In this document: positions 37,221-58,507 of the stretch, piece after piece | Numbering within the stretch: position 1 is the first letter of the stretch | How the letters are laid out: every line of letters starts with the position of its first letter | NCBI GenBank assembly: GCA_963714375.1 | Contig: CAVQOG010000008.1 | Coordinates: 413,171 to 477,170, forward strand | Origin: an uncultured Acidimicrobiia bacterium | Lineage (GTDB): Bacteria > Actinomycetota > Acidimicrobiia > Spongiisociales > UBA5794 | Direction of reading: 5' to 3' | DNA length: 64,000 bases | The notes under the pieces: model-generated | Told to the model about the DNA's origin: nothing | Database searches by the model: none | Seen by the model: the letters and a program-made list of their open reading frames with translations, nothing else | Made by a program: the position numbers and the translations under genes

Positions 37221-37300
37221 CACTCGCACGGGATTCCTGGCGGACGCCAAAATGGACCCTATGCTTTGTTCACAATCGAATATGACGCGGAGATGCACAA

Positions 37301-37447
37301 CTGTTCAGCGCCCGCCCTTGGCATAGCCAAGGCGACGAGGAAGAGGGAGTATCGAATCGTTCGGCGGATGCCCTCTCGGCCATTCACGGTCGTAACGGTC
37401 TGGACGAAATCCGGGGAGTGATCTCCGGGACAGAACCCAGTCCGGTG
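37301..37447 (+). ncRNA. glmS riboswitch-ribozyme (GlcN6P-activated self-cleaving RNA)
   Basis: AGCGCC cleavage motif (A37307/G37308), P1 CCTTGGC/GCCAAGG, GACGAGG, ATCGA...TCGGCGGATG, P2 AGAGGG/CCCTCT and a P4 arm with GTGA loop. Lies directly upstream of glmS. Confidence 0.93.
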
Positions 37448-37518
37448 TGAAGGCGTGAACCTCCCGGTTCACGTTGTCGCCGTATCTCTGTCTCACCGAC
37501 AAAAGGAGATCGCGCGCG

Positions 37519-52815: not shown

Positions 52816-54240
52816 ATGACGACCATGCCGAGTGACACTCCCAATCCGCCAGATCACATGACCCGCGATGAGTTCCGCCGAAACGGCTATGCGATGATCG
52901 ACTGGGTCGCCAACTATCTCGAAACAGCAGGTGACTCCCCTGTGTTCTCCCACGTGGAACCGGGCGAGATTGCGGCCATGATCCCTGACGCGGCACCCGA
53001 ACGCGGCGAATCATTTGAACGAGTGCTCGGAGACCTCGACGATGTCGTCATGCCTGGCATCACGCACTGGCAGTCGCCGAATTGGTTCGCCTACTTCCCT
53101 GCGAACACATCGCCGCCATCGATCCTTGCCGAGCTCGCGTCCGCAGGTCTGGGGGTTCAGGGGATGCTGTGGTCCACATCGCCAGCGGCAACGGAGATCG
53201 AGTCGAAGGTGCTCGACTGGCTCGTCGACATGATGGCCCTACCGCAGTCGTGGAAATCGACCGGACCAGGTGGGGGAGTCATCCAGATGAGCGCATCGGA
53301 CTCGACTCACGCCACCTTGGTGGTCGCACGGCACAAGAACCAGCACCGCGGACACACTGAAGACATGGTTGTGTATGCCTCGACGCAGGCTCATTCCTCT
53401 GTTGCGAAGGGTTGCACGGTCGCAGGAATCGGTCACGTTCGTGAGATCACCGTCGACGACACATGGGCGATGCGTCCCGATGCACTCCGGAAGGCCGTTG
53501 AGACCGATATCGAGAATGGATTGCTCCCGATCGCAGTGGTGTCAGTGGTCGGAACGACCGGGACGACCGCCGTCGATCCCGTGTCGGAGATTGCGGACGT
53601 CGCGTTCGAGTACGACCTGTGGCATCACGTCGATGCGGCGTATGCGGGGAACGCGATGGTGTGTGAAGAGTTTCGGCACCACATCAAGGGAGTTGACCGG
53701 GTTGACAGCTACACCTTCAACCCACACAAGTGGATGATGGTGAACTTCGATTGCAACGTCCTGTGGGTCGCTGATCGTGCTCCGCTGATCGAAACGCTGA
53801 GCATCCTGCCCCCGTATCTTGTGAACAAGGCAACGGAGTCCGGTGCGGTCATCGACTACCGCGACTGGCATGTGCCGCTCGGCCGCCGGTTCCGAGCACT
53901 GAAGCTGTGGTGGGTCATCCGAAGCTACGGGGTATCAGGGATTCAAGCGTTGGTACGTAGCCACGTGGCGCTTGCCGATTCGTTTGCCGAACGCATCGAA
54001 AGGGATGACCGATTCGACCTGTTTGCCCCCCATCCGTTCGGTCTTGTCTGTTTCACGCACCGCAACGGCAACGACGCAACATCGGCGCTGGCCGAGGGGC
54101 TGAACAACTCGGGAAAGGTCGCGGTTACGCCATCAACCCTCGACGAAACCACTTTCATCCGCGTCGTCGTTGGCCAGGCACGAACCACGAGTGACCATGT
54201 CGATGCGCTTTGGAACCTGATCGACGAACTGGCGGGATGA
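52816..54240 (+). CDS. Group II PLP-dependent decarboxylase, aromatic-L-amino-acid decarboxylase type
   Basis: THWQSP, YFPAN, SPAATEIE, HVDAAYAG, FNPHKW, LGRRFRALKLW. Confidence 0.88.
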   Translation: MTTMPSDTPNPPDHMTRDEFRRNGYAMIDWVANYLETAGDSPVFSHVEPGEIAAMIPDAAPERGESFERVLGDLDDVVMPGITHWQSPNWFAYFPANTSPPSILAELASAGLGVQGMLWSTSPAATEIESKVLDWLVDMMALPQSWKSTGPGGGVIQMSASDSTHATLVVARHKNQHRGHTEDMVVYASTQAHSSVAKGCTVAGIGHVREITVDDTWAMRPDALRKAVETDIENGLLPIAVVSVVGTTGTTAVDPVSEIADVAFEYDLWHHVDAAYAGNAMVCEEFRHHIKGVDRVDSYTFNPHKWMMVNFDCNVLWVADRAPLIETLSILPPYLVNKATESGAVIDYRDWHVPLGRRFRALKLWWVIRSYGVSGIQALVRSHVALADSFAERIERDDRFDLFAPHPFGLVCFTHRNGNDATSALAEGLNNSGKVAVTPSTLDETTFIRVVVGQARTTSDHVDALWNLIDELAG

Positions 54241-55671: not shown

Positions 55672-57252
55672 CTACGCCGATTCGGCCCGTTCACGGTGGC
55701 GGACCAAACCCATCAAGAGTCCGTCAGATATGGCTGTCCAGGATGCATCGATGATGTTCTGGTGGACGCCGACGCTGCCCCACGTTGAGTCGATGTCCGT
55801 GTGTTCGGTGAGGACGCGGACCCTCGCGCTCGTGCCGTCGGAGCTATCAAGGTCTCGCACGCGGTAGTCGGTCAGCTTGATCGAATCGACATTGGGGTAC
55901 CGGTCGGCCAACGCCGCCCGCAGCGCACGGTCAAGCGCCGAAACCGGGCCATCCCCTTCACGGGTAGAAACGATCCGCTTGCCGTCTACGACGACTTTCA
56001 CCGTTGCCTCGGCCACGACATCACCGCCACGATGCTCAACGAAGACGCGGTAGGACTCGACGTCGAAGAAGTCCTGATCCCATCCTGCCGCCTCGCGTGC
56101 CAGCAGCTCGAAGGATCCACCGGCTGATTCATAGGTGTACCCAAGGTGTTCGCGTTCTTTGATCCGATCGATCACCAACTGCGCTTGTGACGATGTCAGG
56201 TCGAGTCCCGACTCTTTCGCTTTCGCCACGACTGTCGACCTACCGGCGAGCTCGGATACAACCATGCGAGTCTCGTTGCCTACCGCGGTTGGTGCCATGT
56301 GCTCGTACGCATCGGGTCTCCGAGCCATGGCTGATGTGTGTAGCCCTGCCTTGTGCGTGAATGCTGATGCACCGACGTAGGGGAGATGTGGGTCAAGTGT
56401 CAGATTCACGACATCGGCAATGTGATGGGAGATCGCCGTCAACCTGCCGAGCCGATCTTTCGGGATTGTGTCGTATCCCATCTTGAGACTGAGGTTCGGA
56501 ATGACCGAACACAAGTCGGCATTGCCAGTTCGTTCGCCGTATCCGTTCACACAGCCCTGAACCTGCAAGACCCCATTGCGAACCGCCGTGAGCGAGTTCC
56601 CGACGGCCAAGCCTGTGTCATTGTGGAAGTGGCATCCGAAGGTTCCACCTGAAATGGCTTCCGTCACCTCACCGACCGTCTGCTCGACCTCATGGGAGAG
56701 AAACCCGCCGTTGGTATCGCACAGAACGAGACGTGTGGCTCCTGCATCGTGGGCCGCTTGGAGCACCGCGAGAGCAAAATCTGGGTTGGAGCGATAGCCG
56801 TCGAAGAAATGCTCGGAATCGAAGAACACTTCGCGATCGTGCGACCGAAAGAAGGCGACCGTGTCGCCCACCATTGCGACTGCTTCGTCGAGTGAGGTGC
56901 GAAGGGCGTGTTCAACGTGGTAGTCCCACGACTTCCCGACCAGACACACGGTCCCGGTTTCGGCCGCAAGAATCTTGTGTACTTGCTCGTCATCCTCGGC
57001 AGTGACGCCAGCCTTTCGTGTCGCACCGAAAGCTACGAGCTTGGCATTCTGCATGGACAGTTCGGTGCGGGCCATCTGGAAGAACTCGTCCTCCTTTGGG
57101 TTCGCACCGGGCCATCCGCCCTCCACATAGGCAACCCCGAGATCGTCGAGCAGGCGGCAGACGGCGAGCTTGTCCTTTGGGGTCAGCGAGATGCCTTCTT
57201 GCTGAGTCCCATCTCGGAGGGTGGTGTCGTAGATCTCGACTGTCTGATTCAT
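55672..57252 (-). CDS. cimA: Citramalate synthase (LeuA/CimA family)
   Basis: YDTTLRDGTQQEG, EGGWPGANPK, FFDSEHFFDGY, HFHND, YGERTGNAD and a C-terminal regulatory domain. Confidence 0.9.
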   Translation of the reverse strand: MNQTVEIYDTTLRDGTQQEGISLTPKDKLAVCRLLDDLGVAYVEGGWPGANPKEDEFFQMARTELSMQNAKLVAFGATRKAGVTAEDDEQVHKILAAETGTVCLVGKSWDYHVEHALRTSLDEAVAMVGDTVAFFRSHDREVFFDSEHFFDGYRSNPDFALAVLQAAHDAGATRLVLCDTNGGFLSHEVEQTVGEVTEAISGGTFGCHFHNDTGLAVGNSLTAVRNGVLQVQGCVNGYGERTGNADLCSVIPNLSLKMGYDTIPKDRLGRLTAISHHIADVVNLTLDPHLPYVGASAFTHKAGLHTSAMARRPDAYEHMAPTAVGNETRMVVSELAGRSTVVAKAKESGLDLTSSQAQLVIDRIKEREHLGYTYESAGGSFELLAREAAGWDQDFFDVESYRVFVEHRGGDVVAEATVKVVVDGKRIVSTREGDGPVSALDRALRAALADRYPNVDSIKLTDYRVRDLDSSDGTSARVRVLTEHTDIDSTWGSVGVHQNIIDASWTAISDGLLMGLVRHRERAESA

Positions 57253-57263
57253 GGTGGTTCTCC

Positions 57264-57295
57264 AACGAAAGAACCCTCCGGGTTTCGGAGGGTTC
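57264..57295 (-). terminator. Attenuator terminator upstream of cimA
   Basis: Minus strand reads GAACCCTCCG-aaacc-CGGAGGGTTC-TTTCGTT, a 10-bp perfect stem ending about 12 nt before the cimA ATG. Confidence 0.8.
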
Positions 57296-57325
57296 GTCAG
57301 CGCACACGCGTTTCGCGTGGGCGCC

Positions 57326-57361
57326 CTACGTAATAATGATGGTGGTTGCGGTCTTGATCAT
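57326..57361 (-). CDS. Thr/Ile-rich leader peptide MIKTATTIIIT of the cimA attenuator
   Basis: ATG ATC AAG ACC GCA ACC ACC ATC ATT ATT ACG TAG, with 4 Thr and 4 Ile among 11 codons. Confidence 0.85.
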   Translation of the reverse strand: MIKTATTIIIT

Positions 57362-57370
57362 GAATTCGTG

Positions 57371-57399
57371 AGTATGGACGGTTTCTGTCAGTAGGTCAA
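57371..57399 (-). promoter_or_regulatory. Housekeeping-sigma promoter of the cimA leader
   Basis: Minus strand reads TTGACC-N17-CATACT, 9 nt before the leader ATG. Confidence 0.8.
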
Positions 57400-57511: not shown

Positions 57512-58507
57512 GTGGGGAGCGAGGGAAAGCAGCGGATCTTTTCGGGTGTGCAGCCCACCGGGCAGCCTCATCTTGGAAACTACCTCGGAGCATTTCGCAA
57601 CTGGGCTCGACTCCAGAGTGACTACGACGCGATCTACTGCATCGTCGACTTGCATGCCATGACCGTTGAATACAGCCCTGTTGATCTCGAAGCGGCAAGG
57701 GTTGACACAGCTCGGGTGCTTCTGGCGCTTGGTATCGATCCTTCGCGTTCGCTCCTGTACACCCAGAGCCAGGTGTCCGGTCACGCCGAGCTTGCGTGGA
57801 TTCTGAGCACGTTGATGCCGATGGGTGTGTTGAACCGCATGACCCAGTTCAAGGACAAGACGACTGCGGGCCACGCATCCAACCTCGGCTTGTACTCATA
57901 TCCAGTTCTGATGGCTGCCGACATTCTGTTGTACCGAGCGAATCTCGTTCCCGTCGGTGACGATCAGCGACAGCACCTTGAGGTGACGCGGGATGTTGCC
58001 GAGCGATTCAACAACCGCTTCGGCGATGTGTTTCCCATTCCCGAGGCCTACATCCCCGAAACCTCAGCGCGTGTCATGTCGTTGACAGATCCGACGGCGA
58101 AAATGTCCAAGTCCGATAGCCAGCCGAAGGCGTCCATATCGATCCTCGACGACGCAGACGTGATCAGCAAGCGGATCAGAAGCGCGGTCACCGACAGTGA
58201 TCCTGTTGTCCGCTACGACACCGATGCAAAGCCAGGGATATCAAATCTCCTCGAGATCATGGCTGCTTGCACGGACCGATCGATCGATGATCTCGTCAAG
58301 GAATACGGAGACGGTGGCTATGGGGCGTTCAAGGCTGCAGTTGCCGAAGCTGTTGTCGAAGAGTTGGCTCCCGTCAAAGCCGCATACAACGCCTTGAAGA
58401 ACGGCGACGTGCGTGAGGTGTTGCGAACCTCGGGGGAAAAGGCCCGTGAGCTTTCTGTTGGGTACCAGCGCGAGGTGTATCGGGCAGTCGGGATGAAGGG
58501 CTACTAA
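57512..58507 (+). CDS. trpS: Tryptophan--tRNA ligase
   Basis: FSGVQPTGQPHLGNYLG, YPVLMAADILLY, VPVGDDQRQH, KMSKS. Confidence 0.97.
   Translation: MGSEGKQRIFSGVQPTGQPHLGNYLGAFRNWARLQSDYDAIYCIVDLHAMTVEYSPVDLEAARVDTARVLLALGIDPSRSLLYTQSQVSGHAELAWILSTLMPMGVLNRMTQFKDKTTAGHASNLGLYSYPVLMAADILLYRANLVPVGDDQRQHLEVTRDVAERFNNRFGDVFPIPEAYIPETSARVMSLTDPTAKMSKSDSQPKASISILDDADVISKRIRSAVTDSDPVVRYDTDAKPGISNLLEIMAACTDRSIDDLVKEYGDGGYGAFKAAVAEAVVEELAPVKAAYNALKNGDVREVLRTSGEKARELSVGYQREVYRAVGMKGY

Follow-up and report, generated by a model that had tools for sequence, protein, structure and literature searches.

Introduction

Candidate leader peptides that bear stretches of Ile, Val or Leu codons, together with terminators, were reported upstream of ilvB in Corynebacterium, Mycobacterium and Streptomyces by Seliverstov et al. 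(2005, PMC1262725), and components of these actinobacterial attenuators were found to be often missing. In the ilvBNC leader of Corynebacterium glutamicum, transcription starts about 1 nt from the leader start codon, and three hairpins follow, the first of which was proposed to pause the polymerase, with an antiterminator and a terminator that share a boundary trinucleotide (Ryabchenko et al. 2025, PMC11857589). The polycysteine short open reading frames (sORFs) of mycobacteria work at the level of translation, where stalled ribosomes prevent a duplex that would otherwise mask the downstream ribosome-binding site (RBS), and no terminator takes part (Canestrari et al. 2020, 10.1101/834739). A further principle comes from the tug-of-war (TOW) riboswitches: a folded RNA less than 5 nt upstream of an intrinsic terminator was shown experimentally to suppress termination without sequence overlap, which the authors attributed to competition for the exit channel, a longer spacer restoring termination; such a layout, in which the spacer is below 5 nt and the terminator below -15 kcal/mol, is that of about 10% of the natural ZTP riboswitches, mostly Gram-positive ones (Bushhouse, Fu and Lucks 2026, bioRxiv 10.64898/2026.06.17.733018). 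Here we analyze the leader of cimA, the gene of (R)-citramalate synthase, in 64,000 nt of DNA from an uncultured Acidimicrobiia bacterium (contig CAVQOG010000008.1; the whole stretch is called the window). The leader is very probably a ribosome-mediated transcription attenuator that adjusts cimA expression to how much charged tRNA-Ile and, in most lineages, charged tRNA-Thr is available.

Citramalate synthase commits pyruvate and acetyl-CoA to a threonine-independent route to 2-oxobutanoate and isoleucine, i.e., 2-oxobutanoate for Ile is supplied without use of Thr, which is the substrate of the competing IlvA route. To our knowledge, little is known about bacterial control of the citramalate route beyond feedback inhibition of the enzyme. 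An earlier note, made from the letters of the window, had read the region upstream of cimA as a Thr/Ile-sensing attenuator with a mutually exclusive antiterminator; what it said about the signals and the controlled gene agrees with the analysis given here, and its account of how the switch is built does not.

Results

The leader and its conservation upstream of cimA

The whole element is read on the minus strand, from window position 57399 to 57252 (the G+C content of the window is about 59%). The parts named in the earlier note (a promoter, a near-leaderless ATG, the peptide MIKTATTIIIT, a hairpin, a 10-bp terminator with UUUCGUU, and the RBS of cimA) are all present at the following positions.

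57394..57399, minus strand: -35 hexamer TTGACC (promoter scan; TTGACN in relatives)
57371..57376, minus strand: -10 hexamer CATACT (promoter scan; conserved in relatives)
57326..57361, minus strand: leader upstream open reading frame (uORF), MIKTATTIIIT and stop UAG (reading of the open reading frame; equivalents in relatives)
57361-57359, minus strand: start codon ATG of the uORF
57350-57352, 57341-57346 and 57329-57331, minus strand: Thr codons of the uORF
57332..57340, minus strand: Ile run AUC AUU AUU, the putative regulatory codons (codon conservation)
57328-57326, minus strand: stop codon UAG (TAG) of the uORF
57299..57325, minus strand: hairpin hp1, GGCGC.CACGCG aaa CGCGUG.GCGCU (-18.1 kcal/mol by folding; covariation)
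57296..57298, minus strand: spacer GAC from hp1 to the terminator
57271..57295, minus strand: intrinsic terminator stem-loop GAACCCUCCG-aaacc-CGGAGGGUUC (10 bp, -18.1 kcal/mol)
57264..57270, minus strand: interrupted U tract UUUCGUU, where the 3' end of an attenuated transcript is expected
57260..57263, minus strand: Shine-Dalgarno sequence (SD) GGAG of cimA, 7 nt before its ATG (57252)
55672..57252, minus strand: cimA, (R)-citramalate synthase, 526 aa (TIGR00977 equivalog match)

The protein scored 653 bits against the citramalate synthase model TIGR00977 (cutoff 450), and its relatives have the HMGL-like, HCS_D2 and LeuA_dimer domains and carry the NCBI name citramalate synthase. Scanning the genome collection with CimA gave 80 Acidimicrobiia loci with 62-95% protein identity, 79 of them usable (one lacked the 5' end of the gene); the closest relatives of the window are uncultured Acidimicrobiia, and among the best 120 matches of two CimA protein searches there were only close Acidimicrobiia relatives. 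Counts based on the alignment refer to 74 leaders.

The element is kept in 78 of the 79 usable loci, in the order TTGAC-N17-CATACT, a start codon without an SD, a uORF with a terminal Ile run, hp1, a short spacer, an intrinsic terminator and the RBS of cimA. The uORF starts with ATG in 73 loci and with GTG in four (L005, L035, L051 and L060), and is degenerate in one (L075, ...SIVG). Three more distant loci also carry the element, with a partly different hp1 sequence at the same position. In a scan of metagenomes by the pattern of hp1 plus terminator, 18 of the 19 matches were Thr/Ile uORFs before cimA and the remaining one was a chance match; this outcome led us to reject hp1 as a general platform for other amino-acid runs or genes. 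No second promoter and uORF of this kind was found within the 64 kb of the window. A run of three Ile codons is by itself not unusual there (6 matches, 3.4 expected), and the significance of the leader therefore lies in the whole arrangement being conserved in relatives, not in the Ile run. As a unit, the 131-nt leader folds far better than its shuffles (z = -5.2).

The only locus without the leader is L027, in which a tandem direct repeat of about 70 nt (...ttccgcgggccagaaagc.gcgccacgcggctctgtaaccctgggttctggagccgc... twice; L027:2136-2365) replaces it upstream of cimA. The metagenome-assembled genome is labelled Acidobacteria, and mis-binning or rearrangement is possible.

TTGACC and CATACT, 17 nt apart, form the only sigma-70-like match in a 2-kb scan. 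TTGACN with a 17-nt spacer to the -10 box recurs in 71 of the 74 relatives, and the -10 box reads CATACT in 66 and GATACT in six. The ATG of the window uORF lies 9 nt past the -10 box and has no SD; a start codon 7-11 nt past the box (mode 9), again without an SD, is found in 73 of the 74, and from this distance we infer a transcription start that leaves a 5' untranslated region of about 0-4 nt, i.e., a near-leaderless transcript.

The leader peptide and its codon signal

In the relatives the uORF has 7-15 codons, and its N-terminal part varies in length and sequence, only the Thr and Ile codons being kept. Over the 74 loci, Ile makes up 30.6% of the uORF residues against 3.5% in CimA (8.7-fold), and Thr 28.6% against 6.8% (4.2-fold), while Val and Leu fall from about 9% in CimA to less than 2% (about 5-fold depletion), so that the leader appears specific for Ile and Thr and not a general branched-chain leader. 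The longest Ile run has at least three codons in 56 of the 74 loci and is followed closely by the stop, with one codon between the last Ile and the stop in 65 and none in six. Thr codons precede the Ile run in 66 loci and are missing from this position in the other eight. Among the Ile codons of the uORFs, AUU has a share of 29%, about fourfold more than in cimA (7%), and AUA never occurs; AUU is read by wobble, AUA by another tRNA. Judged from the codons, Ile is apparently the universal signal of the leader and Thr a frequent second one. This pair of signals fits the pathway, since CimA feeds 2-oxobutanoate to Ile without consuming Thr. With uORF and terminator conserved in 78 of 79 genome loci, and with Ile and Thr at 31% and 29% (rounded) of the residues, the Thr/Ile-sensing attenuator proposed in the earlier note gains support.

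The Thr tract is the more variable part. Thr-expanded leader peptides (MTGSGTTTTTIIIT and MTGSGTTTTTTTIIIT) were seen in two metagenome loci, L081 and L088 (contigs Ga0316187_10000803 and Ga0316196_10000015), and in two metagenome loci runs of up to seven consecutive Thr codons occur. The Thr tract appears to grow and shrink by changes of codon repeats, the Ile run and both hairpins being fixed.

It might be argued that the element senses no amino acid, the short ORF and the terminator acting as a constitutive damper, or the ORF being an independent small gene for a hydrophobic peptide. In line with this, changes made to candidate regulatory codons of the ilvB leader in Streptomyces coelicolor had no effect, as cited in PMC1262725. 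We consider this explanation very improbable, because the peptide is unconserved apart from its Ile and Thr codons, the enriched residues are the product of the pathway (Ile) and the substrate of the alternative route (Thr), Val and Leu are depleted and AUU is enriched, and past the terminator there is no space for a promoter of cimA.

In the window, the +1 frame of the uORF is free of stops and enters cimA in frame (57361-57252 on the minus strand; the distance from ATG to ATG is 109 nt, i.e., 3n+1), so that after such a shift at the Ile codons translation would run through both hairpins. A +1 frameshift at hungry Ile codons that would fuse the uORF to cimA was considered and rejected, as the ATG-to-ATG distance (104-154 nt) varies modulo 3 among the relatives; the open +1 frame in the window is probably a coincidence.

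Two conserved hairpins, hp1 and the terminator

The terminator is present in 74 of the 74 loci, with a predicted stability of -16.7 +/- 1.7 kcal/mol; 98% of its alignment cells are paired and compensatory changes occur at 4 of 8 pairs. A U-rich tail follows the stem in all loci, mostly interrupted (e.g., UUCUUUCG and UUUUCUCU) and perfect in a few (UUUUUUCU). From the end of the terminator to the ATG of cimA the median distance is 21 nt, which leaves no room for a separate cimA promoter; cimA must then depend on read-through, and this dependence argues for conditional termination.

Hairpin hp1 is likewise found in all 74 aligned loci (-21.0 +/- 2.9 kcal/mol), with compensatory changes at 8 of 8 consensus pairs and 96% of cells paired, and it is more stable than the terminator in 69 of them. 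Taken jointly, the two stems have standard pairs in 97% of cells and compensatory changes at 12 of 16 consensus pairs; none of 500 shuffles matched the observed values, and sliding the partner by 1-3 columns lowered pairing to 31-68%. The check suggested earlier, an alignment of the cimA upstream regions, thus returned both conserved Thr/Ile codons and compensatory changes in both stems. A role of hp1 as the operator of a dimeric transcription factor was rejected, since the spacing of the half-sites varies from 3 to more than 8 nt and the arms covary as RNA.

The position of hp1 is tied to both neighbors. In 64 of the 74 loci, pairing in hp1 starts at the third base of the stop codon, and the uORF stop is UAG in 69 of 74, compared with 46% of cimA genes, a preference that is explained by the pairing of its G within hp1. 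The spacer between hp1 and the terminator measures 3 nt in the window and 0-7 nt in the relatives (mode 3; at most 4 nt in 60 and at most 5 nt in 69 of the 74), and the other distances in the leader drift far more (16-57 nt from the terminator to the ATG; 7-15 codons in the uORF). The loops of hp1 vary freely in length (3-8 nt or more) and in sequence, and hp1 is a plain stem-loop.

The 3' arm of hp1, CGUGUGCGC (57299-57311, minus strand; columns 72-80 of alignment A1), is nearly invariant, even where a pairing partner is lacking. Its base U58 is unpaired in the window and L003, in which a C stands opposite, and in the L028-L032 group, in which, as in L039 and L047, the opposite position of the 5' arm is deleted. 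This near-invariance favors the explanation that hp1 is a sequence-specific recognition element, the folding of which is controlled by the ribosome and the partner of which is a trans-acting protein (an antiterminator, or NusA/NusG) or the polymerase itself; the put RNA of phage HK022, for instance, binds the polymerase and makes it resistant to termination. No alternative RNA partner of hp1 was found, which also speaks for this, as does the place of hp1 directly after the leader stop, where the classical pause hairpins sit (those of the trp and his leaders lie right after the region of the leader stop codon); hp1 may perhaps be only a pause hairpin that synchronizes ribosome and polymerase. 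On the other hand, the loops are free in length and sequence, the distant loci L043, L049, L066, L074, L080 and L100 replace much of the stem sequence and keep its position, the terminator stem is equally conserved, so that slow evolution of GC-rich stems may explain the conservation, and no candidate gene for such a protein is linked to the locus, the neighbors being trpS and the gene of a pyridoxal-phosphate (PLP) decarboxylase. A specific partner of this kind seems to us rather unlikely.

Search for an antiterminator or other alternative pairing

In the leader peptide attenuators of the trp, his, thr, ilv and leu operons, the textbook logic is that a stalled ribosome frees a segment which pairs with an arm of the terminator. 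The earlier note had proposed such a switch for cimA, with CGUAGGG (RNA nt 32-38), which spans the leader stop codon, pairing with CCCUCCG (nt 70-76) in the 5' arm of the terminator. In the window, 6 of the 7 bases do pair (duplex energy -5.8 kcal/mol), and 82% of the alignment cells are standard pairs, since both UAG-GG and CCCUCC are conserved. The columns show no covariation, however: 207-334 of 500 shuffles reach each of the observed measures. In the relatives, the duplex of the stop region with the terminator 5' arm has a mean energy of -3.5 kcal/mol, weaker than in shuffles (-4.3), and only 11% of the loci reach -6. It uses the two G residues that open hp1, so that the first pairs of hp1 compete for them, and when it is imposed on the leader of the window, the cost is 2.3 kcal/mol as long as the terminator lacks its 3' arm and 15 kcal/mol once that arm has been made. 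From footprint geometry, a ribosome stalled on the last Ile codon would moreover cover part of the pairing.

The search was widened to 25 segment pairs drawn from the uORF, the Ile run, the stop region, the arms and loop of hp1, the spacer, the terminator arms, the U tract, the RBS and the first 60 nt of cimA, and duplex energies were compared with shuffles and with non-cognate loci. The two real helices stood out (z = -34 and -32), and every cross-pairing of a terminator arm with an upstream segment was at or below the level of shuffles. The segment made of the hp1 3' arm, the spacer and the terminator 5' arm ("2:3"-type) folds worse than shuffles (-4.7 against -7.2 kcal/mol, z = +10). When partition-function folds were computed under ribosome masks, the terminator stem had an equilibrium probability of 0.97-0.98 in all four states, namely with no ribosome and with one on the first Ile, the last Ile or the stop. 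An extension of the hp1 base into the spacer and terminator, a competition for boundary trinucleotides as in C. glutamicum ilvBNC, was tried and dropped (at most 2-3 weak pairs, unconserved).

The defining antiterminator of the classical attenuators (trp/his/thr/ilv type) was thus tested for and not found, and folding of the alternative structures, the other check suggested in the earlier note, gave none in the duplex, segment-fold or ribosome-mask tests. Small overlaps can matter, as the C. glutamicum ilvBNC attenuator works with one of three nucleotides (PMC11857589), and an antiterminator may have escaped detection. Nevertheless, with the candidate pairing equalled by shuffles, the cross-pairings of the terminator arms depleted and the terminator at a probability of at least 0.97 under every mask, a switch by alternative structures, through CGUAGGG:CCCUCCG or another antiterminator, is improbable. 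To judge from these energies, the two hairpins look as if they had been selected to be independent of each other.

Some of the segment pairs concern translation. The 5' arm of the terminator is anti-SD-like (CCUCC) and the 3' arm SD-like (GGAGG), and over the 74 loci the complementarity of the 5' arm to the RBS of cimA is enriched (-7.2 against -5.0 kcal/mol in shuffles, z = -8.6), that of the hp1 3' arm plus spacer weakly so (z = -3.7). In constrained folds with the ribosome on the stop, the hp1 3' arm pairs with the SD region in several loci. These results, and the precedent of the leaderless polycysteine sORF attenuators (Canestrari et al. 2020, 10.1101/834739), would suit a control that acts mainly on translation or the fate of the mRNA, the uORF ribosome altering how the RBS pairs with the 5' arm of the terminator (CCUCC) or with the 3' arm of hp1. 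But the local 10-bp hairpin of the terminator outcompetes the RBS pairings in every fold, cognate and non-cognate pairs of 5' arm and RBS are alike (-7.2 and -7.0 kcal/mol) and show no covariation, and about 15 loci have 30-57 nt between terminator and RBS. The canonical stem and U tract in all loci argue for termination, the SD of cimA is unpaired in the minimum-energy folds, and the duplexes of the RBS with the uORF and with the Ile run are weaker than in shuffles (z = +3.8 and +6.6). Control mainly at this level is therefore unlikely, though a translational contribution as a second layer of control is possible.

The CCCUCCG core of the terminator 5' arm (57286-57292, minus strand) recurs within cimA at 57215-57221 (minus strand), where the gene encodes the conserved DTTLRDG motif. 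In transcripts that read through, the coding region could therefore offer a further partner to the terminator 3' arm; the pairing is weakly enriched over shuffles (z = -3.4) and shows no covariation.

A proposed steric model of the switch

Since no alternative pairing was found, the state of hp1 would be the only difference between a stalled and a non-stalled ribosome. We tentatively propose a ribosome-gated tug-of-war, a real possibility, though one held with less than even confidence: the lead ribosome sets the folding of hp1, and folded hp1 sterically blocks termination in the exit channel of the polymerase, with no antiterminator.

The leader would work as follows. A single promoter would give a near-leaderless transcript, the first 36 nt of which encode MIKTATTIIIT, and cimA would be made only upon read-through of the terminator. 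When Ile- and Thr-tRNA are plentiful, the lead ribosome would reach UAG and hold about 10 of the roughly 12 nt of the hp1 5' arm, so that hp1 is unfolded; the 5' flank of the terminator would then be slack and single-stranded, and the RNA polymerase would terminate at about 57264-57270. A ribosome stalled on the Thr or the first Ile codons would not reach as far as hp1, which would stay folded directly upstream of the terminator and compete sterically for the RNA-exit channel, so that the base of the terminator stem could not close and the polymerase would enter cimA. Probably, hp1 would also act as a pause hairpin and keep the polymerase waiting for a ribosome to load on the leaderless AUG. 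In this account we infer the transcription start, the translation of the uORF, the geometry of the ribosome footprint, the pausing and the steric effect of hp1.

The layout is consistent with such a mechanism. In bacterial ribosomes the distance from the P site to the 3' edge of the footprint is about 15 nt, and by this measure the ribosome would enclose a median of 0 nt of the hp1 5' arm when its A site is on the first Ile codon, 4 nt when it is on the last Ile codon and 10 of 12 nt when it is on the stop. As in the tug-of-war layout, hp1 and the terminator are separate helices, with pairings between the hp1 arms and the terminator arms depleted relative to shuffles; the spacer of 3 nt in the window is below the limit of about 5 nt, and the terminator (mean -16.7, window -18.1 kcal/mol) falls in the range of about -15 kcal/mol or stronger. 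Hp1 had no match to an Rfam aptamer and is at most a TOW-like element, not a TOW riboswitch.

Several points weigh against the steric model. In the experiments with E. coli polymerase, a simple upstream hairpin clearly affected only the weakest terminator and hardly influenced stable terminators whose U8 tract was perfect (10.64898/2026.06.17.733018), and the terminator stems here are fairly strong, though the U tracts behind them have interruptions. Under the model, a uORF left untranslated would lead to read-through; classical superattenuation has the opposite outcome, and physiologically the prediction is less tidy. Across loci, spacer length and terminator strength are uncorrelated (rho 0.11), and between spacer length and the stability of hp1 there is only a weak correlation (rho -0.26, p 0.04, without correction for phylogeny). 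The stem of hp1, especially its 3' arm, is more conserved than pairing needs and could, as a pattern of sequence, point to a specific partner. A search with the window and L063 found no RNA run that holds the window sequence or a relative.

Genes around cimA

The cimA gene looks monocistronic. Divergent to the leader promoter, with its start about 110 nt away, lies a gene of a class-I aminoacyl-tRNA synthetase of the Trp/Tyr type (57512-58507, plus strand, 331 aa), probably trpS, and downstream, convergent with cimA, a gene of a PLP-dependent decarboxylase (52816-54240, plus strand). The synteny of trpS, cimA and the PLP decarboxylase gene recurs at the distant locus L101. Elsewhere in the 64 kb, a glmS ribozyme/riboswitch (RF00234) is located at 37296-37453 on the plus strand (92 bits, gathering score 37); it was the only hit of a scan of the whole window at Rfam gathering thresholds.

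Discussion

Implications of the cimA leader

The element implies that the citramalate route is switched on when Ile-tRNA or Thr-tRNA is short, across a class of mostly uncultured Actinomycetota. It is also an example from nature of leader-peptide attenuation in which the terminator is conserved but no antiterminator is supported, and "incomplete" attenuators of Actinobacteria have been puzzling since 2005. If the steric model is true, a translating ribosome would control termination by folding or unfolding a neighboring hairpin, and the tug-of-war principle would extend from ligand-binding riboswitches to translation-coupled sensing; this could explain why many actinobacterial attenuators have seemed to "lack components". 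With about 100 nt, the element is compact and modular, which makes it an attractive part for engineering.

Comparison with known systems

The enterobacterial leader of the thr operon (thrL; Rfam Thr_leader) and the ilv leaders resemble the cimA element in having a short Thr/Ile-rich ORF and an intrinsic terminator before the first biosynthetic gene, and in the expected logic by which a hungry ribosome leads to read-through. In contrast to them, the cimA element has no mutually exclusive antiterminator, its ORF is apparently near-leaderless and lacks an SD such as theirs have, it is much shorter, with 11 codons and some 100 nt of RNA in total, and it controls cimA, not thrABC or ilv. An Rfam scan of the leader returned only Phe_leader (27.3 bits against a gathering score of 55, E = 0.04), and no family was above threshold. 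No description of the element turned up in a literature search that combined citramalate synthase or cimA with leader peptide, attenuator or T-box; with neither an Rfam family nor a paper found, the earlier note appears justified in calling it undescribed.

The C. glutamicum ilvBNC attenuator (Morbach 2000; Ryabchenko et al. 2025, PMC11857589) is similar as an actinobacterial leader peptide with a branched-chain codon signal and a terminator. The cimA element differs from it in having two hairpins that share nothing and no third hairpin, and in both the signal codons (Leu, Val and Ile in ilvBNC) and the regulated gene. The set of Seliverstov et al. (PMC1262725) does not cover cimA or Acidimicrobiia, and its leader ORFs overlap the terminator hairpin, whereas the ORF described here stops at a hairpin of its own, located upstream of the terminator. 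The element resembles the mycobacterial polycysteine sORFs (Canestrari et al. 2020, 10.1101/834739) in having an actinobacterial sORF, here probably leaderless, with a run of codons for the product of the downstream pathway and, presumably, stalling as the sensor, but it has a conserved canonical terminator and no duplex between uORF and RBS.

In its hairpin layout, the element is like the tug-of-war riboswitches (10.64898/2026.06.17.733018): an intrinsic terminator is preceded, at a distance of less than 5 nt, by a stable folded module that neither overlaps it nor is complementary to it, the terminator stems are around or below -15 kcal/mol, and the lineage is Gram-positive. It differs in that the module is a plain hairpin and not an aptamer, and its folding would be set by the position of the ribosome and not by a ligand, with a steric effect that is presumed here. 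The kind of control is thus known, namely leader-peptide attenuation, and what is new is the conserved layout before cimA, apparently leaderless, with two independent hairpins and no antiterminator.

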